The translations under genes were made by a program, and so were the position numbers. This document shows, one piece after another, positions 17,805 to 60,335 of a stretch of DNA of 64,000 bases. Position 1 is the stretch's first letter. Every line of letters begins with the position of its first letter. Origin of the DNA: Candidatus Oxydemutatoraceae bacterium. Lineage in GTDB: Bacteria > Pseudomonadota > Gammaproteobacteria > Poriferisulfidales > Oxydemutatoraceae. The notes below the pieces were generated by a model. It ran no database searches. It saw nothing but the letters and a program-made list of their open reading frames with translations, and was not told the DNA's origin. The stretch is from positions 1,031,620-1,095,619 of the forward strand of contig OZ243040.1 in NCBI GenBank assembly GCA_965211995.1, in the 5' to 3' direction.

Positions 17805-18912
17805 GGACGACCTTGACCGGCACTTTGAAGCCGATGCGCCGGTAATCGAATCTTTCGTCCCGCCGGTCCGCATCGAGCATCGCGATATTCACGAGCCGCT
17901 CGTGATGGTCGGAGAACTCGCACGCCGGATCCATGTTGGCGGCGTCGCCGGTGATCGCGAACGCCTGGCAACGGCAGCCGCCCCAGTCTATTTCACGGCG
18001 CTCGCAGCCGCGGCACGTCTCGGGCATCCAATCGGTGCCGCGGTATTTCTCGAACGCTGTCGAATGTTGCCAGATATCCTTAAGGCTGCGCTCCTTGAGA
18101 TTGTCGAACTCAAGCGCGGTGATGCTTTCGGCCGCGTGGCACGGCAGCACCTTGCCCGACGGCGTCACGTTCAGGAACTGCCGCGCCCAGCCGCCCATGC
18201 AGGCTTTCGGGCGCCGCGCGTAGTAGTCGGGCACGACGTAGTCAATCACCAGTATGCCCTTGAGGCGCTCGCGTGCCTTCTCGACGACCCCGGTCGCCCA
18301 TTCGAGTTGATCGCGCTTCGGCATCAGCGCCGCGCGGTTGTGATACGCCCAGCCGTAATACTGCACGTGCGCGACTTCAAGACGCGAGGCGCCCATCTCG
18401 ACCGCGAGGTCAATGAGGGACTCGAGGTGGTGGAGGTTCATCTTGTGCACCGGCGCGTTGACGGTCAGCGGCAGGCCGTTGGCTTTGACCGCTTTCGCGA
18501 CCCTGAGCTTTTGCGCGAAACCGTCGTGGTAGCCGCCGATGCGGTTGGCGCTGTCCTCCTCGCTGTCCTGGATGCTGATCTGCACGTGGTCGAGGCCGAG
18601 TTCGGCGAACCGCGCCATGCGCGCGTCATCAATCAGCACCGCCGAGGTGATGAGGTTGGAATACAGTTTGAGTCTGCGGGCGGCGGCGATCAACTCCTCA
18701 AGGTCCTTGCGCACCGCCGGTTCGCCGCCGGAAAAGTGCACCTGCAAGACCCCCATCGCGACGGCCTGCTCGAACGCGTCTATCCATTGCTCGGTGTTGA
18801 GTTCACCGGACGAGCGCTCGAGTTCCATCGGGTTCGAGCAGTACGGACACCGCAAGGGGCAGCGGTGCGTCAATTCGCACAGCATGGACACCGGCATACC
18901 GACGCCGCTCAT
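17791..18912 (-). CDS. pqqE: PQQ biosynthesis radical-SAM protein PqqE
   Basis: MSGVGMPVSMLCELTHRCPLRCPYCSNP is the radical-SAM CxxxCxxC motif, followed by a SPASM Cys-rich C-terminus. About 373 aa from Met 18912. Confidence 0.85.
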   Translation of the reverse strand: MSGVGMPVSMLCELTHRCPLRCPYCSNPMELERSSGELNTEQWIDAFEQAVAMGVLQVHFSGGEPAVRKDLEELIAAARRLKLYSNLITSAVLIDDARMARFAELGLDHVQISIQDSEEDSANRIGGYHDGFAQKLRVAKAVKANGLPLTVNAPVHKMNLHHLESLIDLAVEMGASRLEVAHVQYYGWAYHNRAALMPKRDQLEWATGVVEKARERLKGILVIDYVVPDYYARRPKACMGGWARQFLNVTPSGKVLPCHAAESITALEFDNLKERSLKDIWQHSTAFEKYRGTDWMPETCRGCERREIDWGGCRCQAFAITGDAANMDPACEFSDHHERLVNIAMLDADRRDERFDYRRIGFKVPVKVVHAGS

Positions 18913-19440
18913 GTCCGTAAAAACCCCTTGTCGGCCAAGTCTTGAAACATCGCGGTCATGTCCTTCAATCTCCGCTCCGCGGGCGCGTTGTTGGTCGCGC
19001 TGAGTGTGGCCGGGCGAGGCGGCCATTGCAAGTTTGGATCAGCATCGTTGCACCCATCAGCAAACGCGCTGAATATGGCCGGGCGAGGCGGCCATTGCAA
19101 AAGACGGCGGTGCGTCAATTCACACAGCCCGGACACCGGCAGGCCGACGCCGCTCATGTCCGTAAAAACCCCTTGTCGGCCAGGTCTTGAAACATCGCGG
19201 TCATGTCCTTCAATCTCCGCTCCGCGGGCGCGTTGTTGGTCGCGCTGAGTGTGACCGGGCGAGGCGGCCATTGCAAGTTTGGATCAGCATCGTTGCACCC
19301 ATCAGCAAACGCGCTGAATATGGCCGGGCGACGCGGCCATTGCAAAAGACGGCGGTGCGTCAATTCGCACAGCCCGGACACCGGCAGGCCGACGTCGCTC
19401 ATGTCCGTAAAAACCCCTTGTCGGCCAGGTCTTGAAGCAT
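18900..19440. repeat. 245-bp tandem repeat, about 3 copies, duplicating the pqqD 3' end and pqqE 5' end junction
   Basis: Track ORFs 18909..19271, 19154..19534, 18942..19190 and 19187..19435 are offset by exactly 245 nt. Each copy encodes ...KDMTAMFQDLADKGFLRT (stop) then MSGVGLPVSGLCELTHRRLLQWPPRPA.... There is a nested 24-nt sub-repeat tgcaatggccgcctcgcccggcca. Confidence 0.8.
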
Positions 19441-19671
19441 CGCGGTTATGTCCTTCAATATCTGCTCCGCGGGCGCGTTGTAGGCCGCGCTGAGCTTGGC
19501 GGAAATATCTTTCACCGTTGTGCGCCCGTCGCATAGTTTCAGGGTGTCAAGCGCCGGGGCGTCGGGCTCAAGCAAACGCTCCGGCGCGAGCAGCACCCAG
19601 CGCCCGCGCGTCTCGTCGTGGTGCAGTCTGACGTGGTCGGGCAGAAATGGCATCGAGCCTGCCGACACCAT
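19399..19671 (-). CDS. pqqD: PQQ biosynthesis protein PqqD
   Basis: RWVLLAPERLLEPDAPALDTLKLCDGRTTVKDISAKLSAAYNAPAEQILKDITAMLQDLADKGFL. The start is uncertain; candidates are the Met at 19671 or 19653, and the track ORF extends to 19749. Confidence 0.75.
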   Translation of the reverse strand: MVSAGSMPFLPDHVRLHHDETRGRWVLLAPERLLEPDAPALDTLKLCDGRTTVKDISAKLSAAYNAPAEQILKDITAMLQDLADKGFLRT

Positions 19672-39165: not shown

Positions 39166-39640
39166 AACGAGTCTCACCCCCGCGAAGCCGGCCCGGCGCC
39201 GTGTTGCCCGCCCGCAGGCATCCGCGAATGACGCGGGTTCGCCCGCCGCTTCAAGCCAGTGGCCGCACCGCGACGCACACCTTCTTTCATTGGACGTCAC
39301 CCGCTATCTTCTGAACCGATATAGCGAGTCTCACCCCCGCGAAGCCGGCCCGGCGCCGTGTTGCCCGCCCGCAGGCATCCGCGAATGACGCGGATTCAGT
39401 CCACCGCTTCAAGCCAGCGGCCGCACCGCACGCACACTTTCTTTCATTGGATGTCACCCGCTATCTTCTGAACCGATATAGCAAGTTTCACCCCCGCGAA
39501 GCCGACCCGGCGCCGTGTTGCCCGCCCGCAGGCATCCGCGAATGACGCGGGTTCAGTCCGCCGCTTCAAGCCAGCGGCCGCACCACGAAACGAGGCGTCT
39601 TTTTATTGCCGCGTCACCGTGCTCGATGATCTCCCGGCCG
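39166..39640. repeat. 155-bp tandem repeat, 3 copies, intergenic
   Basis: The unit starts (a/g)acgagtctcacccccgcgaagccggcccggcgccgtgttgcccgcccgcaggcatccgcgaatgacgcgg at 39166, 39321 and 39477. Confidence 0.75.
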
Positions 39641-43394: not shown

Positions 43395-43625
43395 CGAATC
43401 ATTTCAGACTGTTTCATCTCCGCTTTAACCGCGGCTTTATCTGAGGGTCATTGCACCCCGTTTCATCTCTGCCTTAACCAATCGCCTTATCTGCGGGGCA
43501 TTGCGCCCCGTTTCGTCTCCGCCTTAACCAATCGCCTTATCTGCGGGGCATTGCGCCCCGTTTCGTCTCCGCCTTAACCCATCGCCGCATCTGCGGAAAT
43601 CCGCGTCATCCGTGGATCATTACAA
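43395..43625. repeat. Roughly 58-bp tandem repeat, 4 copies
   Basis: The unit is gtttc(a/g)tctc(c/t)gcc/tttaacc.atcgcc.tatctgcggggcattgcgcccc. The last copy degenerates into the palindrome gcggaaatccgc. Confidence 0.65.
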
Positions 43626-43752: not shown

Positions 43753-46700
43753 CTAACCCGTGGTTAGACAACGACGGAGAGCCGTGCGCCGGCGATTGGC
43801 GCCGGAAACCAGAAAACCCATTGCCAGTATCAGCAGCCAGCCCCACTCCATTGCGCCGCCGCCGCCACCGCCGCCACCGGTGCTACCGCCACCGCCACCG
43901 CCACCGCCGCCGCCACTGCCGCCGCTCAGCGCGCTGGGGTCATGAATCACCCCGTTTCTCAATCTGTCCGCGTCATTGATGCGGCCGTCCTGGATCTCCA
44001 CCAGCAGGCACTCGTCCCCCACGTTCATGCCGGAGTCACTCGCCCGGCGCCAGATGCCGGGAAGCGACTCCCTGTCATCTCTCCGCTGCGCGTTAAGTCC
44101 GGGGCACGGCGCCGGCGCGCCGTAGTAATCATCTAACGGCGCTATCGCCCCGGTCGTGAATCGGCCGTTCCAGCCGTCTTCACCGGTGTACTTGCGCAGA
44201 CGTGCGCCGGCGAACTCCACCGCGCGCGCCAGCGGGATCACCACGCTTGCCAGGCCGCCGTTCCCTACCCCGCTCACGTGGAAATCAAACACCCCGGTCT
44301 CCGCGTAGCGCGGCGGCGTGCTGACCCCTCCGGTCGCGGCATCTACAGGCGTACTGCCGTCCGGGATCTGCGCCGACTCAGGCGCGACCTGCATCGCCGC
44401 CAAGGCATAGCCGCCGTACCCGACCCGAGGATCTCCCGTGCCGGATATCTCCAGAAACGCATTATCCCTTACCCGCAGCCGCCGAGTGCCTTCGCCAAGA
44501 TCCGGGTCGGGGCTCATCACGGGACCGAAACCAAACAAGACGTTGCCTCTCAATTGGATCCCGCACGCCAGAGAAATTCCGAGGTCCGGGTTGTCAGGGT
44601 CTATACCAAAAGTAGCGGGCACGGTTAATTCCAAGTCCAATCTCATCGCCGGCGAAAAATCCCCAAGTAGGATATTTCCATCAGACGGGAAAGTAACACT
44701 AGCCGTTCCCGTTTCCGTTGTTATCGTTATTTCAGGACTTCCGACGAAATTCTCATCCAGCCTCATGCCGTTAAAGGATACCTCCGCGGTGACGCGCTGC
44801 ACGCCGCTGCCGCGATTGGTAATGTCGGCCCCCATCATAATCACGGTCGCACCGGTATTCGCGTCAAGTGTGGCTTCGCATTGGTCAATGTTCACCGTGA
44901 AGAGCGAGGTGACATCAATATTCCTGGGGGGATCATCACCTTCGTCGATCTCATTATCGGCAACCACCGACACGAGCAGTCTTCCTGGTTCTATTTCATC
45001 CTCGCCGCTTGGGACGATGCCCCGGATCAGCACCTCGATCAAATCGCCCACCCGAATGTCGCTAACATCCAGGAAACTCACCCCCACCGCCGTTGCCGTC
45101 CCGGCGGTCGCAGGCACCGTCGCCATTCCCGGCACGCCATTGACCGTCAGCGGCGTCGTTGACACGCGGTTGCGCAGCATCGCCGTCACCTGATAGTGGA
45201 GGATGGTTTCCTCTGTGGGCCCAATCGTGAACACAAAACCCCCGCTCCCGATCGCCACCCGGGTCAAATCGGGAGGATCCGCAAAGAGCAGGACGCGGTC
45301 GGAAGAGGGCGGCGGCTCGTCCTCGACCTCGACCTCGACGTTGCCTGTTGTGACCCGCTGCGCGAGGGGAAGACCGGGCGGCACCCGACTCACCAACTCC
45401 ATGAACGGCGTGAAATCGGCAATGCGCAGCGACAGATCTGCCGTCCCCAACGTGACCTCGGCGGTCATGCGGGTGGCGGCCTGGGTCAGCGTGAGCGTAA
45501 CGGGCGGCGTGACGCCGGTAACCTCCACTTCCAACGTGAATTCGAACGACGACTCGTCCAGAATATCCTGCGACACGGCCACCGACACCGGCACCATCAC
45601 CTGCGCATTGGCGTTGGTCACCGAGTTCACCTCAAACCCCACCAGCGGCTGAACGTAGAAAATCTGTGTCCGCATCGTCAGTTCGCCGTTTACATCGGTG
45701 GCGACCCACAGCACCGACCTCAAAAACGAACCCAAATCAATAGAGCGATCATCCGCATCTCCATTGGGCCCCACCCTCGTGCAGTGTTCGTCGAGTGTTT
45801 CCAGCACTCGCACCGGCGCCGGCCCGGCAATCCTGTCCAACTCCATCCTGCACTCATCCGTGTACTCATAGGCGCGCAATTCCACGCAGCGGTCGCAACT
45901 CGTCTCCGGCACCGGTATCCGGGACGTCCGCCCCGGGCGGATAAAGATCGTTTCGCCACGGACCAACGTCCCCCCTCCCACCGTGTCAACCGTGATCACC
46001 GCTTCCGAGGCGCTCACCCTGAGTTGGAACGTCCGCATCACCGTTGAGGTCTCGCCGTCGTACGCCGAGATCGTCACCGTGTAGCCTCCCAGATCCGCGT
46101 CGTTATCCACCGTGCCGCTGACCGCGCCCGTCGCTATGCCCGTCGTCCCGTCCATCTTTGGATCGTAGGTGAGGCCGGCGGGCAGGCCGGTCACGGTCAC
46201 AGTCACCGCGTTGTTGTCCGTCGCCACGACTCGAAACGGCGTGATCGTCTGACCGCGGGAGTAGAACCTGTATCCCGGAGGCCTGTCGGCCGGGGGCATC
46301 GTAATCACCGGCGGCACACCGTTCACTCTCATTGTGAACGTCGCCACCACCGGATCGTTCACGCCGTCGTTCGCCGTGACCGTCACCAGGTAGTCCCCTG
46401 CGGCCGCGTCGTTATCCACCGTGCCGCTGACCATGCCCGTTGCCAAGTCGTAATTGAGGCCGGCGGGCAAACCGGCTACGTCCGCCGTCACCGCGTCGTT
46501 GTCCGTCACCGTGACCGGAAACGCCGTGATCGGCTGCGCCTGAGTGGTTTCTACAATGTTTTCCGGGACCGTGATCACCGGCGCCCTGTTGGTTATCGTC
46601 ATCGTGAACTGCACCTGAACCTCTGGATTCACTTGGTCGTTCACTGAGATCACCACCGTGTAGTCCTGCTCCCTGACTGTGTCGGACGCCACTGTGCCGC

Positions 46701-49098
46701 TGATTATGTCCGTCCTTGGGGTGTAGATGAGGCCGGAAGGCAGGGGGGCCACCCTCTTTCTCGCATCCGTGCCGGTGTTTGTAATCGTCAACTGCAACAC
46801 GACTGTCTCGCCCTGATCGTATTCCTGGTCCCCCGGGTGGGTGATATCCGGCGGCGCATCAATCAACGTTATGGTGAACTCCGCCATCGCGCTCTCCCCC
46901 ATCTCATCGGTCGCCGTGACCACCACCGTGGTGACCCCTATGGGCGCGTTGGGTCTCACCGTGCCGCTTACCACTATCATGCCCATGCCGTCGTTGTTGA
47001 TGGTTAGTGGTTGATCGTTGTCTGGTGTTGCGCTAAGGCCGTTGCTCGGCAAGCCGCCCACGTCCACCGTCACCACTCCGCTATCAATCACTTCGATATT
47101 GAACGGCTCAATTCTCTGGCTTTGCTTGTAAATCCTGTTCCCCGGCTCGGTGATGGTAATATCCGGCGGCGCATTCGTTATTTCTATATCAAACGCCTCC
47201 TCCGTCACCGGACTGTTCACGCCGTCGTTCGCCATGATCCTCACTGAGTAGATCTGCACCGGCGCGTTGCGCGCCACTGTGCCGCCGACATTGCCCGTCT
47301 CCGCATTGTAGTTGAGGCCGTTGGGCAAGTTGGTTACCGTCACCGTCAGCGGGTCGCCGTCATCCGTCACCGTGATCTGAAACGGCTCAATCATCTGCCC
47401 CTGGGTGAATACAAAGCCCCCCGGGCCAGTAATTTCCGGCGGCGCATTCGCCTCCACTGTCATCAGAAACGTGCTTGCCACCGCACCCTCTTCGTCTGTC
47501 GCCATAACCATCACTATGTAATCTCCCACCCGCGCGTTGTCATTCACCGTGCCGCTTATTTCCGCTCTGCCGCCGGTCAGCAGTGCAGGGTCACCTGGCG
47601 AAACCGGAACTTCAGTTGCGACGAGGCCGACGGGCAGGCTGCCGGCGTCCACGGTCACGCTGACCGGGTCGGTATCGTCCGCATGAATCACGAACGGCGT
47701 AATGTCCCGGCCCTGAGTCACACTTCTGCCATTTATCTGGTCCAGGTTGGTGAACACCGGCGGCACATTGGTCACCGTCATTTGGAATGTTGCCGTCGGC
47801 GAGTTCGCGCCGTCGTTCGCCGTCACCGTCACCGTGTAGTCCCCTGCCTGCGCGTTGCGCGCCACCCTGCCTGTCACTTCGACTGTTGCTTCACTGCCAC
47901 CGGGCGGCTGTCCGCTATTGAAACGGAATACCGGTTCGTCGAGGCCATCGGGCAGACCGTCCACCGTCACCGTCAGCAGGTCGCCGGCTATGTCCGTTAC
48001 CGTGATCGTGATCGACGGGAGGATCTCCTGCCCCTGGGTGAATTCTAAAATCTCCGTCGGGACCGTGATCACCGGCAGCGCGTTGAGCACCCTGAGGTCG
48101 AACATCACCGTCGGCGTGCTCACGCCGTCGCCCGCCGTGATTATCGCCGTGTAGGCCCTCACTTCCGCGTTGTTCTCCACCGTGCCGCCCACGCTCTCCG
48201 CCTCCGGATCATACTCAAGGCCGGCAGGCAGGTCGTCCACCGTCACCATCAGCAAGTCATCGGCTATGTCCGTCACCACGATCGGGATCGGCGGGGAAAC
48301 CGTCTCGCCCTGGGTGAATACGAAGTCCCCCGGGTCAGTAATTTCCGGCGGCGCATCGTTCACCGTCATCTGGAACGTTGCCGTCGGCGTGCTCGCGCCA
48401 TCGCCCGCCGCAATCGTCACCGTATAAGTCCCCGCTTCCGCGTTGTTCGCCACCTGGTCATCAATCGTGACCTCGACTGTGACCACGGCCACAGCCGGGG
48501 CGCCGGCCGTGCTTGTCTCCAGGCTGTGGCTGAGGCCGTCGGGCAGACCGACCACCGTCACCGTTGGTAAGTCGTTGCCAATGTCCGTCACCTGAACCGT
48601 GATCGGCGGGAAAACCGTCTCGCCCTGGGTGAACGTGAAAGTCTCCGCCGGGACAGGAATCACCGGCGGCGCATTGAGCACCGCTATGTCAAACGTTACT
48701 GGCTGGAACTCCTGCGTGCTCCCGCCCTGCTCCTCGCTCAGCCGAAAAGTCGCACTAATCGTCGTCATGTAGGTCATCGCTTCCACGTTGTTCGCCACCG
48801 TGCCGACCAATCCTTCCGTCGCCGAGTCATACTCAAGACCGGCAGGCAGACCGGTCACAGACACCATCACATTGCTAATGCCCAGCACTAGAGCGCCGTC
48901 ACTGTCGCGCACCCCCGTTAACACAATCGGGACCGGGAGAATCGTCTGGCCTTGGGTGAACACCTGGTTCCCCGGAGGAGTGATCGCGGGGCCGGGGAAT
49001 GCTTGGGCGGCGGCAAAATCAGCCTGCAACAACAAGCCGAGCGCCAAGACCGCGAAGCCGCCCGGAAATATCAGCGATAAAAGCCGCGACCGTCTCAT
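43753..49098 (-). CDS. Giant secreted adhesin-like protein (1781 aa) with 11-12 Ig-like (cadherin/He_PIG-type) repeats and a GlyGly-CTERM-like C-terminal sorting signal
   Basis: Signal peptide MRRSRLLSLIFPGGFAVLALGLLLQADFAAAQA. Repeats of about 95 aa follow (APPxIT.PG.FVFTQGETV.P..I.VTD...DLLTVTV.GLP.GLEYD....VGGTV.NNA..G.YTV.ITA.DG...PTATF.MTV.N), then a roughly 700-aa non-repetitive region. The C-terminus is SGGSGGGGGGGGGGSTGGGGGGGGAMEWGWLLILAMGFLVSGANRRRTALRR (Gly run, TM helix, Arg cluster). Confidence 0.8.
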   Translation of the reverse strand: MRRSRLLSLIFPGGFAVLALGLLLQADFAAAQAFPGPAITPPGNQVFTQGQTILPVPIVLTGVRDSDGALVLGISNVMVSVTGLPAGLEYDSATEGLVGTVANNVEAMTYMTTISATFRLSEEQGGSTQEFQPVTFDIAVLNAPPVIPVPAETFTFTQGETVFPPITVQVTDIGNDLPTVTVVGLPDGLSHSLETSTAGAPAVAVVTVEVTIDDQVANNAEAGTYTVTIAAGDGASTPTATFQMTVNDAPPEITDPGDFVFTQGETVSPPIPIVVTDIADDLLMVTVDDLPAGLEYDPEAESVGGTVENNAEVRAYTAIITAGDGVSTPTVMFDLRVLNALPVITVPTEILEFTQGQEILPSITITVTDIAGDLLTVTVDGLPDGLDEPVFRFNSGQPPGGSEATVEVTGRVARNAQAGDYTVTVTANDGANSPTATFQMTVTNVPPVFTNLDQINGRSVTQGRDITPFVIHADDTDPVSVTVDAGSLPVGLVATEVPVSPGDPALLTGGRAEISGTVNDNARVGDYIVMVMATDEEGAVASTFLMTVEANAPPEITGPGGFVFTQGQMIEPFQITVTDDGDPLTVTVTNLPNGLNYNAETGNVGGTVARNAPVQIYSVRIMANDGVNSPVTEEAFDIEITNAPPDITITEPGNRIYKQSQRIEPFNIEVIDSGVVTVDVGGLPSNGLSATPDNDQPLTINNDGMGMIVVSGTVRPNAPIGVTTVVVTATDEMGESAMAEFTITLIDAPPDITHPGDQEYDQGETVVLQLTITNTGTDARKRVAPLPSGLIYTPRTDIISGTVASDTVREQDYTVVISVNDQVNPEVQVQFTMTITNRAPVITVPENIVETTQAQPITAFPVTVTDNDAVTADVAGLPAGLNYDLATGMVSGTVDNDAAAGDYLVTVTANDGVNDPVVATFTMRVNGVPPVITMPPADRPPGYRFYSRGQTITPFRVVATDNNAVTVTVTGLPAGLTYDPKMDGTTGIATGAVSGTVDNDADLGGYTVTISAYDGETSTVMRTFQLRVSASEAVITVDTVGGGTLVRGETIFIRPGRTSRIPVPETSCDRCVELRAYEYTDECRMELDRIAGPAPVRVLETLDEHCTRVGPNGDADDRSIDLGSFLRSVLWVATDVNGELTMRTQIFYVQPLVGFEVNSVTNANAQVMVPVSVAVSQDILDESSFEFTLEVEVTGVTPPVTLTLTQAATRMTAEVTLGTADLSLRIADFTPFMELVSRVPPGLPLAQRVTTGNVEVEVEDEPPPSSDRVLLFADPPDLTRVAIGSGGFVFTIGPTEETILHYQVTAMLRNRVSTTPLTVNGVPGMATVPATAGTATAVGVSFLDVSDIRVGDLIEVLIRGIVPSGEDEIEPGRLLVSVVADNEIDEGDDPPRNIDVTSLFTVNIDQCEATLDANTGATVIMMGADITNRGSGVQRVTAEVSFNGMRLDENFVGSPEITITTETGTASVTFPSDGNILLGDFSPAMRLDLELTVPATFGIDPDNPDLGISLACGIQLRGNVLFGFGPVMSPDPDLGEGTRRLRVRDNAFLEISGTGDPRVGYGGYALAAMQVAPESAQIPDGSTPVDAATGGVSTPPRYAETGVFDFHVSGVGNGGLASVVIPLARAVEFAGARLRKYTGEDGWNGRFTTGAIAPLDDYYGAPAPCPGLNAQRRDDRESLPGIWRRASDSGMNVGDECLLVEIQDGRINDADRLRNGVIHDPSALSGGSGGGGGGGGGGSTGGGGGGGGAMEWGWLLILAMGFLVSGANRRRTALRRCLTTG

Positions 49099-49461: not shown

Positions 49462-49670
49462 GGCACCGCCCTTAAAATCAAACCCGCCGGTAAAACCGTG
49501 CAATGATTCTTGCGCCGGCACGTGAAGCATTGGATTAAAATCAAACCCGCTGATACATCTTCGCAACGATTCTTTCGTTAGCGCGTGAAACACTTGCTCA
49601 AAATCAAAACCGCCGGTAACACTTCGCAACAGCGATCCCCGCTTATTCGCAACGCCCGAAAATCAGGGGC
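49462..49670. repeat. Roughly 63-bp tandem repeat, about 3.5 copies, upstream of the adhesin gene
   Basis: The unit starts aaaatcaaa(a/c)ccgc(c/t)g(g/a)ta.....tt.gcaa.g.ttc. Track ORF 49357..49629 shows the resulting repeated GGFDF peptide, which is spurious. Confidence 0.6.
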
Positions 49671-50106
49671 CGGACAAAGATTTGAGCAGCCCCAGACAGG
49701 CGTCTTCGACAAAGTCCAGCACCGTGTCGTATCCGCGCCCCCCGTCCGTGAACAGCACCTCCTCCGCGTCGAACGCGCGTGAGTATTCCATCAGCAGGCC
49801 GGCGCGCGCGCCCTGCGCCCGCACGCACAGCAAGTTGTCCTTGTCGGCGGCGAGAATCAGATCAAACCGCGCGGCGGCGGTGAACGGACACGAGCGCAGT
49901 CCCGACAGGTCATAGCCGCGCAACGCCGCCGTCGCGCACATCTTCGGGTCCGGCAGGCAACCCGGCAATGCGTGCGTGCCCGCCGAAGCCACTCGCATCG
50001 CAAGCCCCGCGTTCTCGCTCAGATAACGAAACACCGCCTCGGCCGCAATCGAGCGGCAGATATTCTGCGAGCAGACGAACAACACGGATCGAGCGGACTT
50101 AAACAT
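49663..50106 (-). CDS. Low-molecular-weight protein-tyrosine phosphatase (or arsenate-reductase-like LMW-PTP)
   Basis: MFKSARSVLFVCSQNICRS is the CX5R P-loop. 147 aa from Met 50106; the 227 N-terminal codons of the track ORF are antisense to epmA and spurious. Confidence 0.8.
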   Translation of the reverse strand: MFKSARSVLFVCSQNICRSIAAEAVFRYLSENAGLAMRVASAGTHALPGCLPDPKMCATAALRGYDLSGLRSCPFTAAARFDLILAADKDNLLCVRAQGARAGLLMEYSRAFDAEEVLFTDGGRGYDTVLDFVEDACLGLLKSLSGP

Positions 50107-50195
50107 CGGCCCAGTCGAAGCGGCAGAGACTCTGCGGACAAACGAACAACACGGATCGGGTGGACTCAGGCATCGGCCCAGTCGAAAGCAAGTGT
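50075..50195. repeat. Roughly 65-bp direct duplication of the epmA stop / PTP start junction
   Basis: acgaacaacacggatcg(a/g)g(c/t)ggact(t/c)a(a/g)(a/g)catcggcccagtcgaa appears twice. One copy keeps the epmA TGA and the other keeps the PTP ATG. Confidence 0.65.
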
Positions 50196-51711: not shown

Positions 51712-52722
51712 TTGATGAACGACCGCTGGCAACAAGAATTGCAAAACTCGGTCACGCGCGTCGCCGATCTTTTGCACGCGCTCGAACTCGACCCCGACGA
51801 GTTGCCGTTCGCCCGCGATATCAAAGACTTCCCGACGCGGGTGCCGCGCCCTTATCTCGCGCGCATACGCAAGCGCGACGCCGGCGACCCGCTGCTGCGC
51901 CAGGTGCTGCCGGTCGCCGACGAGACCATTCATTCCCCCGGATACGCCGTTGATCCGGTCGGCGATCTCGGCGCGCACCGCGGCGGCGGCGTCCTGCACA
52001 AATACCACGGCCGGGTGCTGCTGGTCGTCACCGGCGCCTGCGCGATCCACTGCCGCTACTGCTTCCGCCGCCACTTCCCCTACGCCGGGCACGCGCTCGC
52101 ACGCAGCCTCGACCGCGCGCTCGCCTACGTCGCGCGCGACGCGAGCGTCGAGGAAGTCATTCTGAGCGGCGGCGACCCGCTGAGCCTGAGCAACCCGCGG
52201 CTGTTTGAGTTGTGCCGGCGGATCGAAAGCATCGCCCACGTACGGCGCATCCGCATACACACCCGCCTGCCGATCGTCGTGCCGTCGCGTCTGGAAGACG
52301 AGTTATGCAACTGGCTCAACCGCCGCCCGAAACGCTACCTCGTGGTCTTCCACATCAACCATCCGGCGGAGATCGCAACCGACGTCGAGCGCGCGGTATC
52401 ACGCCTGACGGCGCCGACGCTGATGAACCAGGCGGTGCTGCTCAAAGGCGTGAACGACGACGCCCGCACCCTCGCCGACCTGAGCCGCAAGTGCTTCGGC
52501 GCGGGCATTTTGCCGTATTACCTGCACCTGCTCGACCGCGTGCGGGGCGCGGCGCATTTCGAAGTCGACGCGGCGCGCGCGCAGGCGCTGATGCGCGAAC
52601 TTGCAACCCTGCTTCCGGGGTATCTCGTACCGCGGCTTGCACGCGACGACGGCGGCCCCTCAAAACAATTCCCGCTGCAACACGCCGGCAGTGAACGCCC
52701 GCGTCCTTCGCGCACAACTTGA
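51712..52722 (+). CDS. epmB: EF-P beta-lysylation protein EpmB (lysine 2,3-aminomutase-like radical SAM, YjeK)
   Basis: CAIHCRYCFRR is the radical-SAM motif. The C-terminus LPGYLVPRLARDDGGPSKQFPL matches the YjeK end. It is divergent from efp-epmA. Confidence 0.88.
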   Translation: MMNDRWQQELQNSVTRVADLLHALELDPDELPFARDIKDFPTRVPRPYLARIRKRDAGDPLLRQVLPVADETIHSPGYAVDPVGDLGAHRGGGVLHKYHGRVLLVVTGACAIHCRYCFRRHFPYAGHALARSLDRALAYVARDASVEEVILSGGDPLSLSNPRLFELCRRIESIAHVRRIRIHTRLPIVVPSRLEDELCNWLNRRPKRYLVVFHINHPAEIATDVERAVSRLTAPTLMNQAVLLKGVNDDARTLADLSRKCFGAGILPYYLHLLDRVRGAAHFEVDAARAQALMRELATLLPGYLVPRLARDDGGPSKQFPLQHAGSERPRPSRTT

Positions 52723-52880
52723 TCCACCCGTGCCGAGGCTTGCACGCGACGACGGCGGCCCTTCAAAACAATTCCCGCTGCAACACGCCGGCAGTGAACG
52801 CCCGCGTCCTTCGCGCACAACTTGATCCACCCGTGCCGAGGCTTGCACGCGACGACGGCGGCTCTTCAAAGCAGTCCTCG
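52632..52880. repeat. 102-bp tandem repeat, about 2.5 copies, duplicating the last roughly 30 codons of epmB
   Basis: cttgcacgcgacgacggcgg.c.ttcaaaacaattcccgctgcaacacgccggcagtgaacgcccgcgtccttcgcgcacaacttgatccacccgtgccgagg is repeated. Track ORFs 52601..52825 and 52719..53468 re-encode ...VPRLARDDGGPSKQ.... Confidence 0.7.
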
Positions 52881-53173: not shown

Positions 53174-54058
53174 TTACCTCCGCTCGAGTGCGCCGATGCG
53201 CTCGGCGAGCGGTGGATGGCTCATGAACAGGCGCTTCAGCCCCGTAGCGCCGCCGCCCCTGATGCCGAAAGCCGCGAACTGCTTCGGCAGGTCGGGGGTT
53301 TCGTGCACCGCTTGCAGGCGCTTGAGCGCGGCGATCATCCGGTCGCGTCCCGCGAGGCGCGCACCGCCCTCGTCGGCACGGAATTCACGGCGGCGTGAAA
53401 ACCACATAACGATAGTCGTCGCCAGGATCGACAAGACGATCTGCGCGAGGATCGAAGTGATGAAGTAGGCCGGACCGTAGCCGTGTTGCGATCTGAACAC
53501 CACGCGGCTCACGATATGGCCGATGATGCGCGACAGGAAAATCACGAACGTATTGATCACGCCCTGGATCAGGGTCAGCGTCACCATATCGCCGTTGGCG
53601 ACGTGGCTGATCTCGTGGCCGAGCACCGCCTCGACCTCGCCGGGTTCCAGCGTGTGCAACAGCCCCTCGCTGACCGCGACCAGCGCCTTGTTGCGGAACA
53701 TCCCGGTTGCGAACGCGTTCGGCTGCGACGACGGAAAAACCCCGACTTCGGGCCTCGCGATGCCCGCGGCTTCGGCCTGCCGTGCGACCGTATCAAGCAG
53801 CCATTTTTCCTTGCCGCCGCCCGGCCCGGCGATGACTCTGACACCCAGCGAGCGCTTCGCCATCGCCTTCGACATCGCGAGCGAAATAAAGGCGCCGGAC
53901 ATGCCGAACGCCGCCGAGATGATCAGCAAACCGGTCAGGTTGAGATCCGATCCGCTTCTTAAGAGCAGGTTTTCAACGCCGAACAGGCTCAGCGTAATGT
54001 TCAATACGAACAAAACCGCGAGGTTGGTCGCCATCAGCAAAGCGATCCTTGTCAACAT
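53174..54058 (-). CDS. htpX: Protease HtpX (M48 zinc metalloprotease, membrane)
   Basis: HEISHVANGD is HExxH. Four TM segments. 294 aa. Confidence 0.9.
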   Translation of the reverse strand: MLTRIALLMATNLAVLFVLNITLSLFGVENLLLRSGSDLNLTGLLIISAAFGMSGAFISLAMSKAMAKRSLGVRVIAGPGGGKEKWLLDTVARQAEAAGIARPEVGVFPSSQPNAFATGMFRNKALVAVSEGLLHTLEPGEVEAVLGHEISHVANGDMVTLTLIQGVINTFVIFLSRIIGHIVSRVVFRSQHGYGPAYFITSILAQIVLSILATTIVMWFSRRREFRADEGGARLAGRDRMIAALKRLQAVHETPDLPKQFAAFGIRGGGATGLKRLFMSHPPLAERIGALERR

Positions 54059-54640
54059 AGCGCATCCTCCACTTCGAGACGGTCAATGCTGCGGCAGCTC
54101 TGAGGCAACTTGTGCCCGCGCCGCAATGTTCAATACGAACAAAACCGCGAGGTTGGTCGCCATCAGCAAAGCGATCCTTGTCAACATAGCGCGTCCTCCA
54201 CTCCGAGACGGTCAACGCTGCGGCAGCCCTGAGGCATCTTGCGCCCGCGCCGCAATGTTCAACACGAACAAAACCGCGAGATCAGTCGCCATCAGCAAAG
54301 CGATCCTCATCAGCATAGCGCGTCCTCCACTTCGAGACGGTCAACGCTGCGGCAGCCCTGAGGCAACTTGTGCCCGCGCCGCAATGTTCAACACGAACAA
54401 AACCGCGAGATCAGTCGCCATCAGCAAAGCGATCCTCATCAGCATAGCGCGTCCTCCACTTCGAGACGGTCAACGCTGCGGCAGCCCTGAGGCAACTTGT
54501 GCCCGCGCCGCAATGTTCAACACGAACAAAACCGCGAGATCAGTCGCCATCAGCAAAGCGATCCTCGTCAGCATAGCGCGTCCTCCACTTCGAGACGGTC
54601 AACTTTGCGGCAGCCCTGAGGCAACTTGCGCCCGCGCTGC
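54057..54640. repeat. 129-bp (43-codon) tandem repeat, about 4.5 copies, duplicating the htpX promoter-proximal region and first roughly 20 codons
   Basis: The unit boundaries, marked by atagcgcgtcctccact(t/c)cgagacgg, are at 54057, 54186, 54315, 54444 and 54573. On the minus strand each unit contains ATG CTG ATG AGG ATC GCT TTG CTG ATG GCG ACT GAT CTC GCG GTT TTG TTC GTG TTG AAC ATT GCG ... TGA. That is a 34-aa [37 protein letters not shown], which is a copy of the HtpX TM1. Confidence 0.8.
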
Positions 54641-57156
54641 CCGCGCCGGCCGCGGTAATGCGCCAGATCGGCGAACGCGATGCGCTTGAGGCGGCGCCCG
54701 GCATGCACGATCAGCGTCTGTCCCGGCTGCACGCAGATCGCGGCCGCAAGGCTTTCCTCGCCTGAAGCCAGGCGGCTTTTCGGTATATTGATCAACTTGT
54801 TGCCCCGCCCCTTTGACAATACCGGAATCTCCGCCAGCGGCACGACCAGCATATAGCCTGCGCTGCCGACCGCCACGGCGAGACCGGTCTTCGGGTCGCC
54901 CGCGGACGCCGCGGCGAGCGCGTGCGCGCCTTGGGGCACGCTCAACACTTGCTTGCCGGCGCGCTTGTGCGAGACGGTGTCGCCGAAACGCACCAGCAGT
55001 GCATAGCCGTGGCTGCTCGCGAGCAGATGCAAGCGGTCGCCGCCGCCGGTCATCACGCCGACGAAGTTCGTCGCTTCCGACAATGAAAAACAACTGCTGA
55101 GCGGCTCGCCCTGCCCGCGCGGCGACGGCAGGCTGCGCGCAGGCAGGCTGTAGCAACGGCCGCGCCCGTCGAGGAAAACCGCGTCGCGGCGGTTGTCGCC
55201 GCGCGCGATCGCGAGGAAAGCGTCTTTGGTGCGGTATTCAAGCGCCGCGGCGTCAACCTCGTGCCCGCGCACCACGCGCACCCACCCCATCCTCGACAAT
55301 ACGATCGAAAGATTTTCGACCGGCACCAACTGTTCATGTTTAAGTTCCTCGGCCGCGCCGCGCGCGACCAGCCGGGTGCGCCGTTCGTCGCCGCAGGCTG
55401 CGACGTCCGCCTTGAGTTCTTTTTTGACCAGGGTCTTCAGGCGCCGCGCCGACTTCAGGTACGCTTCGACGTCTTTTTTCTGCGCGCTCAGTCTCCGCTG
55501 CTCCTCGCGGATACGGATTTCCTCGAGTTTCGACAACTGGCGCAAACGGATCTCGAGGACCGCGCGCACCTGCACCTCGCTGAGCTTGAAGCGGCGCATC
55601 AACTCGGCCCCGGGGTCGTCCTCCTTGCGAATGATCGCGATCACCGCATCGAGATTGAGATACACGATCATCAGCCCGCCGAGTTCTTCGAGACGGCGGT
55701 TGATCTTAGCGAGGCGCCACGCGAGGCGGCGGCGGACCGTGTCCTTCCTGAAGTCGAGCCATTCGCCGAGCAGTGCCTTGAGCGTTTTGACCTGCGGCTT
55801 GCCGTCGTTGCCGATCACGTTGAAATTGACGCGGCGGTTGTATTCGAGGTCGGTGGTCGCGAACAGGTGCGACATCAGGCGCTCGCGGTCAACGCGCTTG
55901 CCGCGCGGCACCAGCACGAGCCTGACCGGATGCTCCTGGTCGGACTCGTCGCGCAGGTCCTCGATCCACGGCAATTTTTTGTCCCTGACCTGCGCCGCGA
56001 TCTGCTCGAGCACGCGCGTCGCCGACACCTGGTACGGCAGCGAAGTGATTACGATCTCGCCCCGCTCGACAACGCAGGTCGCGCGGATGCGGATCATCCC
56101 GGCGCCGTGCTCGTAGATCCCGCGCACGTCCCCGGTGTCGCTGACAATCTCGGCGCCGCCCGGAAAATCCGGCCCGCGCACGTCTTCAAGCAACTCGGCC
56201 AGCGTCGCTTTGGGCGAGTCGAGCAGGCGGATGCACGCCGCCGCCACTTCGCCGAGGTTGTGCGGCGGGACATCGGTCGCCATGCCGACGGCGATGCCCG
56301 AGGTGCCGTTCAGCAACAGGTTCGGCAGCCGCGCCGGCAGGCGCACGGGCTCCTCGAGCGTGCCGTCGAAGTTCGTGCGCCAGTCGGTCGTGCCCTGATC
56401 CAACTCTTCGGTCAGCGTCTTGGCGTAGGCGCTCAGGCGCGCTTCGGTGTAGCGCATCGCCGCGAACGACTTGGGGTTGTCAATCGAGCCCCAGTTGCCC
56501 TGTCCGTCGATCAGCGGGTAGCGGTAACCGAAAGGCTGCGCCATCAGCACCATCGCCTCGTAGCAGGCGGCGTCGCCGTGCGGGTGATACTTGCCGATCA
56601 CGTCGCCGACCGTGCGTGCGGACTTTTTCGGTTTGGCGCCGGCGTTGAGTCCGAGTTCGGACATCGCATAAACGATCCGCCGCTGCACCGGCTTCAGACC
56701 ATCGCCGAGAGCGGGCAGCGCGCGGTCGAGCACGACGTACATCGAGTAGTCGAGGTAGGCGCGCTCGGCGAACTCGACCAGCGGAACCCGGCTGGCGGGG
56801 GCGGCGGGGACGGCTTGCCGCGGGGGCTTGCCGCCGCCTTTCTTGACCGGGGCGCCGGCTTCAAGTTTGAACGCCGGCCCGTCGTCCTCTTGCGTCCGTC
56901 CGCGGCGTCTTTTGTATTTCCCCCCACCGCCCGGGCTGCGCCCGGCCGACTTTCCCTCAAGGGGAGAGTGTTCTTCAGCGGCCTGCGCTTTTTTCTTTGG
57001 CCGCACTTCGGACTGGAAGTTGGCGGCTTCCTTTACGACAGATTTCTTTGCGCCGGCTTTAGCGGATTTTTTCTTCGCGGCCACCTTGACGGATTTTTTC
57101 TTCGCGGCTTCCTTAGCGGCTCTCCGGACGGCGCCTTTTGCAACGACTCTTGCCAC
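54568..57156 (-). CDS. parC: DNA topoisomerase IV subunit A (ParC), with an unusual N-terminal extension
   Basis: The conserved core starts ...[44 protein letters not shown] at about 56800 and carries the active-site Tyr region ...[10 protein letters not shown]. There is no ATG/GTG/TTG between the MITE copy and the core. The only in-frame starts are a GTG inside the MITE (about 56990) or the GTG at 57156, which lies 5 nt after the HAD-gene stop. The latter would add an Ala/Lys-rich tail, [22 protein letters not shown]. Confidence 0.8.
56865..57020. repeat. MITE-like element copy (inverted orientation relative to the copy at 58155) inside the parC 5' region
   Basis: ggcttcaagtttgaacgcc...gtcttttgtatttcccccc...ccctcaagggg...ccgcacttcggactgg. 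Confidence 0.6.
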
Positions 57157-57160
57157 CGCG

Positions 57161-58090
57161 TCACTCGCTCAAATGACCGGGCGCAGTGCCGACGCTGCTT
57201 TCGAGTTGGCGCGCGCGCCGCTCGACGATGCCGTCGGCGACGTCTCTCGCGGTGCGCATCAGCCAGCGCCAGGTCGGCGTATCGGTGCGGTAGTCGGCCG
57301 GCCCCATCGCATCTACGCGCCGCTCCTTGTGCAGCAGGTCGTAGGCCTGGTCGTAGGCGAGTTCGGAGTGCGGATTGTGCACCGCGTAAGTGCGTCCGCC
57401 GAGGCGCTTGACCACCGAAAACACCGGCACGTCGCTCGGCCCGTCGGCGACGTAGATCATCTGCGGGATCGGCACGCGCCGCTCGCTTTCCTCCATGCGC
57501 GCGTTCACGTCGATGCCGGGCTCGACGTTGACGCCCTTGTTGATCTCGAAAATCGCGCGCGTCTTGGTGGTGTGATCGAGCACGTAGCCGATCGAAGACA
57601 AGCGCGTGCGCCCGTCGCCGCCCCGCTCGTCGAGCAACTCGCAGCCCCACACCCCGTCGAGATGACCGTGCAACGCGCTGCCGGCGATCATCTGCCGCAG
57701 GCCGGTGCTGACGACGTAGTGCTCGACCTTGATGTCGTGCGCTTGGTACGGCTCGCGTTCCAGCACCCGCTTCATCTCGTCGAAAAATTCCGGCAACCCC
57801 GGATAGAACTCAAGTTCGGCGCCGAGCGCGCGCAATTTGTCGTTGTTCAGCCCCTCGAAGACGCCGCGGCGCACGTAATCGAGAATATGACTCAGGTACA
57901 GCACCTCGTTGGACGTCTGATCGCAACCCTGCTCCTTGTACTTATCGGGCAGTTGATTGACTTCGTCCCAGAAAGCGCGCTCCTCAATGCCGTAGGCGGC
58001 GAACAGCGGCGCCTGCATGTGACCCGGAATCAGGGTCTTGTCAAAATCCCAGATCACCGCGACGATGTTTTGCGAAAAAAACTGCGTCAT
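57161..58090 (-). CDS. HAD-superfamily hydrolase
   Basis: Motif [13 protein letters not shown] (DxDxT). 309 aa. It lies between parE and parC and is bracketed by an inverted MITE pair. Confidence 0.65.
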
Positions 58091-58154
58091 GCCGGAGCCT
58101 GCGCGAGATTGCCCCTGCCGGCGAGCCGTCCGCGGCGCCCGTAGCCGGGAATTT

Positions 58155-58320
58155 CAACTGCCAGTCCGAAGCGCGGCCAACGGCAGAAAAGCAGGCCGCC
58201 GAAAATCACTTTTTCCCTGAGGGGAAGCCGGCCGGGCGCAGTCCGGCCGGTGGGGGGAAATACAAAAGACGCCACGGACGGACGCAAGAGGACGGCGGGA
58301 CGGCGTTCAAACTTGAATCC
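58155..58320. repeat. MITE-like element copy, flanked by a roughly 155-bp divergent duplication of the parE 3' end / HAD 5' end junction (57985-58140 against 58340-58500)
   Basis: ccagtccgaagcgcgg...ccctgaggggaagccggccggg...ggtggggggaaatacaaaagacgcc...cgttcaaacttgaatcc. The upstream duplicate retains the first roughly 35 HAD codons (MTRLFSQTLVAVIRDFGKTLIPG...) fused to nothing. Confidence 0.6.
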
Positions 58321-58445
58321 GGCGCCCCGGAAAGCGCGCTCCCCGAAGCCGCAGGCGGCGAACAGCGGCGCCTGCACGCAGCCCGGGATCAGGGTCTTGC
58401 CGAAATCCCGGATCACCGCGACGAGGGTTTGCGAAAACAACCGCG

Positions 58446-60335
58446 TCATGCCAGATCCTGCGCGAGGTTGCCCTTGTCGGCGAGCCATGCGCGGCGCTCG
58501 GACGCACGCTTGCGTGCAAGCAGCATGTCCATCGTCTCCTCTTCGGCGGCGCCCGCTGCGTGCACCAGTTGCAGCAGGCAGCGGCGCTCCACGATCATCG
58601 TGGATTCCCTGAGTTGTTGCGGGTTCATCTCGCCGAGTCCCTTGAAGCGCGTGATCCGCGCGCGCGCCGCGTCCCTCTGCGTAAGACCCGCGAGGCAGCG
58701 GTCGCGCTCCTCTTCGTTGTTCGCGTAGTGCACGTCCTTGCCGACGTCGATGCGAAACAGCGGCGGCACCGCGACGTAGGTGTGCCCGGCGGCGACCAGT
58801 TTCGGAAAGTGCCTGACGAACAGCGCGGCGAGCAAAGTCGAGATGTGCAGCCCGTCGGCGTCGGCGTCGGCGAGGATGCAAACCTTGCCGTAACGCAGCC
58901 CGGCGAGGTCGTCGCTGCCGGGCTTGACCCCGATCGCGGTCGCGATGTCGTGGATCTCCTGCGATGCGAGCACGTCGTCGGTGGCGGCCTCCCAGGTGTT
59001 CATGATCTTGCCGCGCAGCGGCATCACCGCTTGGAAGCGCCGGTCGCGCGCCTGCCGCGCCGAGCCGCCCGCCGAGTCGCCCTCGACCAGGAACAACTCG
59101 TTCTCGCCGAGGTCGCTCGAAGCGCAGTCGGCGAGTTTGCCCGGCAGCGCGAGGTTCAGGAACATGCTTTTGCGCGGCTGCTTTGCGTTCTTGCGGCGGC
59201 GCTTGTGCGCGTTCGCGAGCGCGAGTTCGACGATGCGTCCGCCCTCGCGCGGGTGGCGGTTCAGCCACAGGCTCAGCGCGTCTTTGGTCACGCTTTGCAC
59301 CACCGCGGCCGCTTCCTTGTGGGTCAGGCGCTCCTTGGTCTGGCCCGCGAACTGCGGATTTTCGATCTTCAAGGACAGCAGGTAGCAGACGTTCGACCAA
59401 AAGTCGTCGGGCGCCGGCTTGACGTTCTTCGGCGTCAATTCATGGAACTGCATGAACTCGCGCACCGCCTCGACAACCCCCGCGCGCAGGCCGCTGACGT
59501 GGCTGCCGCCCTGCGGCGTCGGCACCAGATTGACGTAACTCTCGGCGGGCGGCGGCGCGTCCTCGCCGACCCAGTTCAAGCACCACGCCAGTTCGTGGTC
59601 CTCGCCCGCGTGGCTGTCGCTGATGTTCTCGCCGAGCAGCAAGACGCACCCGTCGGCGAGCGAGTTGAAGTATTCGGGCAGCCCGTTCTGATAGCACCAC
59701 TCGCTGCGGTCGCCGCCGCGCTCGTCTTCGAGCGTGATGCGCAAGCCCGGACACAGCACCGCCTTTGCGCGCAGCAACCGGCGCAGACGTTTGCGGTCGA
59801 AGCGCACGCTGTCGAAAAACTCAGGGTCGGGGCGGAAGCGGATAGCCGAGCCCGAGGCGCGTTTTGCCGTCTTGCCGACCTCTGCGAGCGGACCCGTCGC
59901 CTTGCCGCCGCTGAAAGCCATGTTGTATTCCTTGCCGCCGCGCTTGATCCAGATCTCGAGGTGCTGCGACAAGGCGTTGACCACCGACACGCCGACCCCG
60001 TGCAGGCCGCCGGCGTAGCGGTAATGGCGGTCCGAGAACTTGCCGCCCGAATGCAGCGTCGTCAAAATCACCTCGACGCCGGAGCATTTGCGCTGAGGGT
60101 GCTTATCCACCGGCATGCCGCGCCCGTCGTCGCGCACGCTCAGCGAGTGGTCGCGGTGCAGCGTGATCTCGATCACGCCGGCGTGTCCCGCCAGCGCTTC
60201 ATCCACGCTATTATCTATGACTTCCTGCGCAAGATGGTCGGGGCTCGCGGTGTCGGTGTACATGCTCGGGCGCTTTCGCACCGGGTCGAGCCCGCTCAGG
60301 ATCTCGATTGAAGCCGCATCGTAGGAGGCGTGCAT
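58446..60335 (-). CDS. parE: DNA topoisomerase IV subunit B (ParE)
   Basis: MHASYDAASIEILSGLDPVRKRPSMYTDT...EVIDNSVDEA are the GHKL ATPase motifs. A Toprim EGDSAGGS is present. 630 aa, matching ParE size rather than GyrB. The 50 extra N-terminal codons in the track are Arg-rich junk. Confidence 0.88.
   Translation of the reverse strand: MHASYDAASIEILSGLDPVRKRPSMYTDTASPDHLAQEVIDNSVDEALAGHAGVIEITLHRDHSLSVRDDGRGMPVDKHPQRKCSGVEVILTTLHSGGKFSDRHYRYAGGLHGVGVSVVNALSQHLEIWIKRGGKEYNMAFSGGKATGPLAEVGKTAKRASGSAIRFRPDPEFFDSVRFDRKRLRRLLRAKAVLCPGLRITLEDERGGDRSEWCYQNGLPEYFNSLADGCVLLLGENISDSHAGEDHELAWCLNWVGEDAPPPAESYVNLVPTPQGGSHVSGLRAGVVEAVREFMQFHELTPKNVKPAPDDFWSNVCYLLSLKIENPQFAGQTKERLTHKEAAAVVQSVTKDALSLWLNRHPREGGRIVELALANAHKRRRKNAKQPRKSMFLNLALPGKLADCASSDLGENELFLVEGDSAGGSARQARDRRFQAVMPLRGKIMNTWEAATDDVLASQEIHDIATAIGVKPGSDDLAGLRYGKVCILADADADGLHISTLLAALFVRHFPKLVAAGHTYVAVPPLFRIDVGKDVHYANNEEERDRCLAGLTQRDAARARITRFKGLGEMNPQQLRESTMIVERRCLLQLVHAAGAAEEETMDMLLARKRASERRAWLADKGNLAQDLA

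Follow-up and report, generated by a model that had tools for sequence, protein, structure and literature searches.

Does a tandem array set at the start codon of a gene act on the expression of that gene, or does it merely record how the sequence around the start codon was copied? The question is raised by htpX of Candidatus Oxydemutatoraceae bacterium, an uncultured high-GC gammaproteobacterium, in a stretch of 64,000 nucleotides (GenBank assembly GCA_965211995.1, contig OZ243040.1, positions 1,031,620 to 1,095,619 of the forward strand) referred to below as the window, in whose own coordinates all positions are given unless another contig is named. A preliminary description, made from the letters alone, had proposed that the htpX start region is amplified as an in-frame 129-bp array creating four additional 34-codon mini-ORFs (open reading frames) which mimic the first transmembrane helix (TM1) of HtpX and could serve as decoy promoters, leader peptides or translational attenuators. 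The analysis reported here leads to another reading: the array is very probably a variable-number tandem repeat (VNTR) spanning the junction of parC and htpX, typical of its lineage and tolerated as a by-product rather than maintained as a regulatory device.

Anatomy of the array at the parC–htpX junction

The amplification itself is real. On the minus strand, which carries all genes of the locus, Tandem Repeats Finder (TRF) reports an array with a period of 129, 5.0 copies, 96% matches, 0% indels and a score of 1123 at positions 53996..54637, and the register of units laid out on this strand brings its outer border to 54640. The elements of the junction are as follows.

53996..54640, minus strand: 129-bp x 5 tandem array (TRF and unit register)
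54640-54512, minus strand: unit U1 (unit register)
54511-54383, minus strand: unit U2 (unit register)
54382-54254, minus strand: unit U3 (unit register)
54253-54125, minus strand: unit U4 (unit register)
54124-53996, minus strand: unit U5 (unit register)
54568..57156, minus strand: parC, DNA topoisomerase IV subunit A, intact, 862 aa (TIGR01062 parC_Gneg)
53174..54058, minus strand: htpX, M48 zinc metalloprotease, intact, 294 aa (NF003965 and Pfam Peptidase_M48)
54065..54070, minus strand: GGAGGA Shine-Dalgarno (SD) motif belonging to the real htpX, 6 nt ahead of its ATG
54194-54199, 54323-54328, 54452-54457 and 54581-54586, minus strand: the same GGAGGA hexamer in U4 to U1 (comparison of the strings from SD to ATG)
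54470..54574, minus strand: mini-ORF 1, 34 aa, ATG at 54574 overlapping the parC stop (ORF list)
54341..54445, minus strand: mini-ORF 2, 34 aa, ATG at 54445 (ORF list)
54212..54316, minus strand: mini-ORF 3, 34 aa, ending ...AARAQDASGLPQR, ATG at 54316 (ORF list)
54083..54187, minus strand: mini-ORF 4, 34 aa, ATG at 54187 (ORF list)

In each 129-bp unit the final 66 nt of parC (22 codons) come first and the initial 63 nt of htpX (21 codons) second, the whole reading 5'-GCGGCGCGGGCACAAGTTGCCTCAGGGCTGCCGCAGCGTTGACCGTCTCGAAGTGGAGGACGCGCT up to the htpX start and ATGCTGA...TTGAACATT-3' from there on, and the parC part contains the GGAGGA Shine-Dalgarno of htpX together with the parC TGA that overlaps the htpX ATG (ATGCTGA). 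The preliminary description had overlooked that the unit is a gene junction and that the window contains other duplications of like kind; the "upstream sequence" that it attributed to the units is present and turns out to be the 3' end of parC, with the stop codon overlapping the start of htpX. Likewise, the placement of the array upstream of htpX is right insofar as units precede the start, while the array as a whole reaches down to 53996 and its fifth unit holds the real start codon. Consequently to this arrangement parC is completed normally in the first unit and htpX begins normally in the last one: U1 contains the native ParC C-terminal tail and its TGA (54570-54568), overlapping the first ATG, and U5 contains the real SD, the ATG and the first 21 codons of htpX. 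Both products are complete and exceed the equivalog cutoffs, ParC scoring 958 bits against TIGR01062 parC_Gneg (cutoff 629) with residues 123-855 of 862 matched and with a tail that is alignable with the conserved tails of relatives, and HtpX scoring 400 bits against NF003965, protease HtpX (cutoff 245), with full-length homologues found and an identical database protein encoded on a contig of 1,943,614 bp. The units stand head to tail, with high identity and no spacer, as is characteristic of a VNTR or minisatellite; copy-number variation, on which the VNTR assignment also draws, was seen in the sister 272-bp array described below, no other genome of the species having been found for the 129-bp array itself.

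All four announced mini-ORFs, with their copy of the hydrophobic N-terminal helix of HtpX, were located. Each is chimeric, composed of 21 aa of the HtpX N-terminus and 13 aa of parC tail read out of frame, and each stops 24 nt before the next ATG. The 19-aa core has a mean Kyte-Doolittle value of 2.23, compatible with a membrane helix. For the 34-aa ORF no Pfam match, M48 catalytic domain included, is found, its likeness to HtpX being confined to the first 21 residues. The expected ribosome-binding context is also in place, since GGAGGA 6 nt before the ATG, as well as a TGA at unit positions 40-42, is present in 5/5 units. Because every unit has a good ribosome-binding site and an ATG, translation of the mini-ORFs is plausible, and they are probably translated as short hydrophobic peptides. 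No significance could be assigned, by contrast, to the claimed "in-frame" nature of the unit, as no frame of the coding strand reads through the units. An ORF of 388 aa does run antisense through the array on the plus strand (53523-54689); it was rejected as a gene, having codon-position GC of 0.51/0.61/0.70 compared with 0.60/0.45/0.82 in htpX and a Pfam match that is merely sub-threshold and spurious.

Single-copy ancestry and divergence of the copies

The state preceding amplification is preserved in eight relatives (L081-L086, L087 and L088), sharing 73-86% HtpX identity with the window and represented by contigs whose lengths span 73 kb to 2.4 Mb and exceed 1 Mb in six cases. The operon parE / HAD-like gene / parC / htpX with a single junction is found in all eight. 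Their parC runs 4 or 7 nt into htpX or else stops 2 nt short of it, which leaves no room for an array. In each of L081-L086 the 129-bp unit aligns once and contiguously over the parC/htpX junction with 70-80% identity, which identifies the array as a derived amplification of local sequence. A second htpX start is likewise missing from every one of 54 proteobacterial htpX loci at greater distance in which the N-terminus could be recognized; these have HtpX identity of 64% or less and are taken as a baseline, not as relatives. In metagenomes of JGI neither a probe specific for the amplification junction nor a copy-number-independent SD-ATG probe gave matches, and in a collection of 15 billion proteins the mini-ORF peptides were found solely on the source contig, their 90% cluster having no other member. 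Side differences among these loci include GC content, varying from 41% (L085) to 65% (L083) despite the syntenic operon, and a gene for a Na+/sulfate-type transporter, located 3' of htpX in L081-L083 and absent from L085, L086 and the window (53174-51712 region), where convergent epmB directly follows htpX with a 103-bp array between them.

The same alignment bears on the idea that a mobile or dispersed repetitive element similar to mycobacterial interspersed repetitive units (MIRUs) was inserted at the htpX start codon. The site is suggestive, being an operon stop/start overlap occupied by a small ORF that overlaps the upstream stop, as in MIRUs (PMC12548453), and the likeness extends to tandem units between operon genes, stop/start coupling of the small ORF (PMC12548453) and variable copy number (PMC2734929). 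MIRUs, however, form one family of 40-100-bp units, regarded as mobile and dispersed among about 41 loci, whereas the array has a 129-bp unit derived from the flanking genes and confined to one locus: only the five array copies were detected by BLAST in the 64-kb window, with no other copy of the unit. In MIRUs the ORF shares bases with the upstream stop as well as with the downstream start (-4 coupling), whereas the mini-ORF of the array overlaps the upstream stop only and ends 24 nt short of the next ATG. Besides, the unit is colinear with the single-copy junction of relatives and therefore represents local sequence, not an insertion. A MIRU-like element, neither dispersed in the window nor foreign to the ancestral junction, was thus rejected, and we consider such an origin next to impossible.

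The five units are not equivalent. They fall into four distinct sequences with 16 variable sites, and pairwise differences range from 0 to 13 of 129. No difference separates U2 from U3, and U1 departs from both at 5 sites; between U4 and U5 there are 6 differing sites, which all fall within the parC part, their htpX parts being identical. The two sub-families, U1-3 and U4-5, are separated by 10-13 differences over 129 sites, and this divergence implies that the array arose over several rounds and is not wholly recent.

Polarization of substitutions with three outgroups allowed the copies that serve the real genes to be compared with those that do not. In U1, where the ParC tail is the functional one, the ancestral Q and R are retained and a single change has arisen, while the copies of this tail in U2-U5, read in the parC frame, show Q>R, R>H, N>S, L>M, G>S, V>I and E>G along with 1 synonymous change. 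The functional htpX start of U5, shared with U4, differs from the inferred ancestor by synonymous changes only (CTG>TTG, ACG>ACA and GTG>GTA), while N12D appears in internal copies U1-U3 and T3M in U2/U3 as well; in the mini-ORF tails the changes are V/D, G/E and R/H. Internal copies thus carry mostly non-synonymous substitutions, which speaks against the functions proposed for the array. The distribution suggests that the end copies are under purifying selection and that internal ones evolve as pseudo-copies; with numbers this small it is supportive, not decisive.

These data also bear on the birth of new genes, in which mini-ORFs would be functional small membrane proteins, that is HtpX-TM1 chimeras modulating HtpX or FtsH or having some other use. 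Such a role would be in line with the hydrophobic 19-aa core and with the start, stop and SD intact in 4/4 copies, annotated as genes by gene callers. But the four 34-aa copies differ by five amino acids, including a charged D in the middle of the helix (N12D) and the V/D and G/E changes in the tail, few synonymous changes are specific to internal copies, no homologues occur on other contigs and the tail is an out-of-frame reading of parC. Gene birth at this locus is accordingly judged highly improbable.

Regulatory signals and the repeat load of the lineage

If the units with their SD, ATG and TM1 tuned htpX as leader peptides, attenuators or decoy promoters, for example in response to membrane stress, dedicated signals might be expected within or near the array. 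Over positions 53900-54900 neither strand has a predicted sigma70-like promoter, and the coding (minus) strand is free of terminator-like sites. The best site in a scan with the sigma32 consensus matched at 9/14 positions, a value reached by 97% of shuffles, and promoter hexamers, for sigma70 or sigma32, that would mark each unit of a tandem promoter array were not found. Decoy promoters are therefore not supported by any of these scans. No Rfam family matches the array, the sole match in the window being a tRNA elsewhere, and the 701-nt array RNA folds less stably than dinucleotide shuffles (z = +3.46). As to leader peptides and attenuators, neither an intrinsic terminator nor alternative hairpins were found between the leader ORF and the gene, and the upstream ORF is not conserved in the 8 relatives or in the 54 other htpX loci, leaving this proposal, too, with no terminator, Rfam match, stable fold or conservation behind it.

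What speaks for a regulatory array is the strong SD 6 nt from the ATG in each unit, the fact that mini-ORF 1 takes over the coupling to parC so that four short ORFs now separate htpX from it, and the correlation of fpg1 mRNA level with the length of an upstream tandem repeat in M. tuberculosis (PMC2734929). Against it stand the missing promoter, terminator and Rfam signatures and the weak RNA structure, the absence of the array from 8 relatives and 54 other htpX loci, the pseudo-copy-like evolution of the internal units and the occurrence of like duplications at unrelated junctions (pqqD/pqqE and parE/HAD), which means that nothing ties the array to htpX biology. Taken as a device for htpX regulation, the array seems to us very unlikely.

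Those duplications at other junctions are part of a broader set of repeats in the window and in relatives.

18862..19494, minus strand: 245-bp x 2.6 duplication of the pqqD 3' end and the overlapping pqqE start (TRF, unit layout and PqqC/D/E assignments)
57964..58500, minus strand: decayed two-copy duplication covering the tail of parE and the HAD-like gene's start, period 359 (self-BLAST and frame translations)
39145-39588: 157x2.8 repeat beginning in the 3' end of an ankyrin-repeat ORF (TRF)
43411-43596: 50x3.7 repeat
49472-49630: 63x2.5 repeat
50039-50186: 67x2.2 repeat
52626-52870: 103x2.4 repeat beginning in the epmB 3' end (TRF)
L084 2208-2748, L087 1682-2766 and L088 1407-2763: 272-bp parE/HAD-like junction array

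The duplication at the parE/HAD boundary shares its operon with the htpX array; its copies at 58500-58323 and 58141-57964 agree at 85% over 178 nt, and the seeming gap of ~350 nt from parE to the next gene is explained by this decayed duplication with its period of 359. The five further repeats of the window are intergenic or start in the last codons of the ankyrin ORF, epmA or epmB, and none of the window arrays interrupts a gene. In L081 a 371-bp x 2 duplication extends across the 5' end of the gene for the transporter encoded downstream of htpX, and independent parE/HAD junction duplications are present with 96% and 92% identity.

Direct evidence on the behaviour of such arrays comes from the 272-bp array at the parE/HAD junction, which has 2.0 copies in L084, 4.0 in L087 and 5.0 in L088, although these are co-occurring strains of one sample (ERZ25070786) with 98.3-99.0% identity over parC and htpX. 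By this change in copy number junction arrays are true VNTRs in the lineage. Every extra 272-bp unit encodes a chimeric ORF of 91 aa, composed of 14 codons of the next gene and 76 codons of the ParE tail; these ORFs are chained through GTGA stop/start overlaps and annotated as "DNA_gyraseB_C".

The equivalent arrays in relatives help to judge whether the five copies are an assembly artefact, the real copy number being one or another and the excess arising from the assembler or from strain mixing. The contig is metagenome-assembled, five is the copy number as assembled, and assemblers do miscount tandem arrays. Yet the units are non-identical, with the four distinct sequences and 16 variable sites described above; real molecules must contain the novel junction of htpX codon 21 with parC codon -22; only 645 bp on a contig of 1.94 Mb are taken up by the array; and the relatives' contigs, which their naming style suggests are long-read assemblies, hold comparable arrays, three strains having 2, 4 and 5 copies. 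An artefact therefore appears to us very improbable.

Quantitatively, the lineage is unusually rich in repeats. With long-period arrays defined by a period of at least 40 bp and a match of at least 85%, 5 fall in the 64-kb window and 9 in 77 kb of sequence from relatives, while the htpX neighbourhoods of 80 other Proteobacteria, 851 kb in all, contain 0. With the baseline narrowed to contigs >200 kb (17 loci), 0 arrays were detected in 219 kb versus ~17 expected at the rate of the window (Poisson P ~4e-8). Repeat coverage obtained by TRF with the settings of a published survey is 3.74% in the window versus 0.25-0.27% in the baseline. The load is uneven among relatives, L082 and L083 having none and L081 and L084 many.

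The periods of the arrays leave no significance to the divisibility of 129 by three, remarked on in the preliminary description, as five other junction or gene-end duplications of the lineage have periods of 245, 272, 371, 157 and 103. Altogether 12 junction or intergenic arrays have periods of 129, 245, 157, 103, 50, 63, 67, 371, 161, 272, 115 and 85, only two of which (129 and 63) are multiples of 3, while both kinds of intragenic array, 93 bp in the N-terminal extension of L081 ParC and 144 bp in an LRR (leucine-rich repeat) protein of L084, are such multiples. Arbitrary periods at junctions combined with multiples of 3 inside genes fit a selection filter.

Several neighboring features deserve mention in their own right. 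The ParC of the window has an N-terminal extension of ~120 aa, Lys/Ala-rich and preceding the region covered by the ParC model (56790-57156, minus strand; residues 1-~122), with 27-bp repeats at 57043-57106; in L081 the extension contains a 93-bp x 3.7 in-frame array (L081 3385-3729). The extension forms an expanding and probably disordered, histone-H1-like tail on topoisomerase IV. In the 18862-19494 array the pqqD end reads ..LQDLADKGFLRT* and overlaps the pqqE start by ACATGA (MSDVGLPVSGLCELTHR), with ~100 nt of extra sequence containing an internal repeat/inverted repeat (TTGCAATGGCCGC.TCGCCCGG.CA twice), and the array yields chimeric ORFs of 120 and 126 aa upstream of the real pqqE. The ankyrin-repeat ORF (38302-39165, plus strand) gives weak, below-cutoff matches to models of Legionella Dot/Icm Ank effectors, a He_PIG/PKD protein of 1781 aa is encoded at 43753-49098 (minus strand), and LRR_8 proteins of >2000 aa adjoin htpX in L084/L087/L088 (6970-12885, minus strand). 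The ankyrin, He_PIG/PKD and LRR proteins, all of eukaryote-like or adhesin type, together with contig sizes of ~1.7-2.4 Mb, give only a hint that the lineage may be host-associated.

Origin of the array and its place among known repeats

The events which could have produced the array may be outlined as follows. Illegitimate recombination or replication slippage would first duplicate the 129-bp junction segment once, fusing codon 21 of htpX with codon -22 of parC. No more than 2-3 nt are common to the flanks and the unit ends, and such limited microhomology suggests that no long direct repeat present beforehand drove the initial duplication. The copies would then undergo slippage or unequal recombination with one another, expanding the array to five units and homogenizing it, as indicated by the identity of U2 with U3 and of the htpX parts of U4 and U5. 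The duplication is probably tolerated because its breakpoints flank the junction inside the two genes, so that the first unit completes parC and the last one starts htpX, while a duplication lying wholly within one gene would disrupt that gene. ParC would remain unchanged, and the coupling that once led from parC to htpX would now feed mini-ORF 1; mini-ORFs 2-4 would start from their own SD at an ATG 24 nt past the preceding stop, and htpX would have to rely on its own SD or on serial re-initiation.

The nearest analogues are VNTRs of repeat-rich intracellular bacteria, which share with the array long units (~100-300 bp) placed head to tail with 88-99% identity. In Wolbachia the copy number of VNTR-141 and VNTR-105 depends on the strain and ranges from 0.8 to 7.3, the variation being attributed to slipped-strand mispairing, and the tandem-repeat content of E. 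ruminantium is described as the highest on record (PMC3287509). As with Wolbachia VNTRs, copy number differs between close strains, here in the sister 272-bp array, and the repeat load is high, 3.7% of the window compared with published values of 1.6% for Wolbachia wMel and 0.38% for E. coli K-12 (PMC3287509); hints of a host-associated lifestyle (ankyrin and LRR proteins) extend the parallel. In contrast to the Wolbachia VNTRs, described as intergenic, and to the repeats of E. ruminantium, described as mostly non-coding, the units are cut from two adjacent coding sequences of a compact genome at a stop/start overlap, each extra unit making an SD-equipped chimeric ORF. The organisms differ as well, the present one being a gammaproteobacterium and not an alphaproteobacterium. 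Partial-gene tandem duplications across a gene boundary have the same architecture of an intact upstream gene, chimeric fragments and an intact downstream gene, but compared with generic events of this type the segment is very short (43 codons), is present in five copies and is one of many in the lineage.

Some observations weigh against a neutral by-product. In 4/4 mini-ORFs the SD, the ATG and the stop are intact, indels are absent, and divergence between the sub-families reaches 10%. The array has thus persisted for some time without decay, which may be due to selection or else to concerted evolution combined with the short length of the ORFs. In a more adventurous variant, to which we give a small chance, the recurrent strain-variable chains of mini-ORFs would tune coupling or stoichiometry within operons (ParC versus HtpX) and also act as a nursery of small membrane proteins such as HtpX-TM1 chimeras. 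Weighed together with the single-copy ancestry, the lack of regulatory signals and the repeat load of the lineage, the junction-spanning VNTR remains the reading that we favor, and the array is probably neutral.

For the biology of htpX the array would then matter little, being strain- or species-specific with no sign of a regulatory role. The pattern of the lineage is of more interest, with its many duplicated junctions, a copy number that changes among co-occurring strains and chimeric ORFs that are equipped with an SD and joined in chains, and within one operon a young five-copy junction duplication (parC/htpX) stands beside an old decayed one (parE/HAD). A practical consequence concerns annotation, since the 34-aa "genes" and 91-aa "DNA_gyraseB_C" proteins on these contigs are duplication fragments. 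The lineage thereby offers a natural system for the study of how compact genomes tolerate tandem duplications, the survivors being those that span boundaries or stay in frame within disordered regions, how translational coupling is broken or extended, and how chimeric small ORFs equipped with SD and ATG originate.

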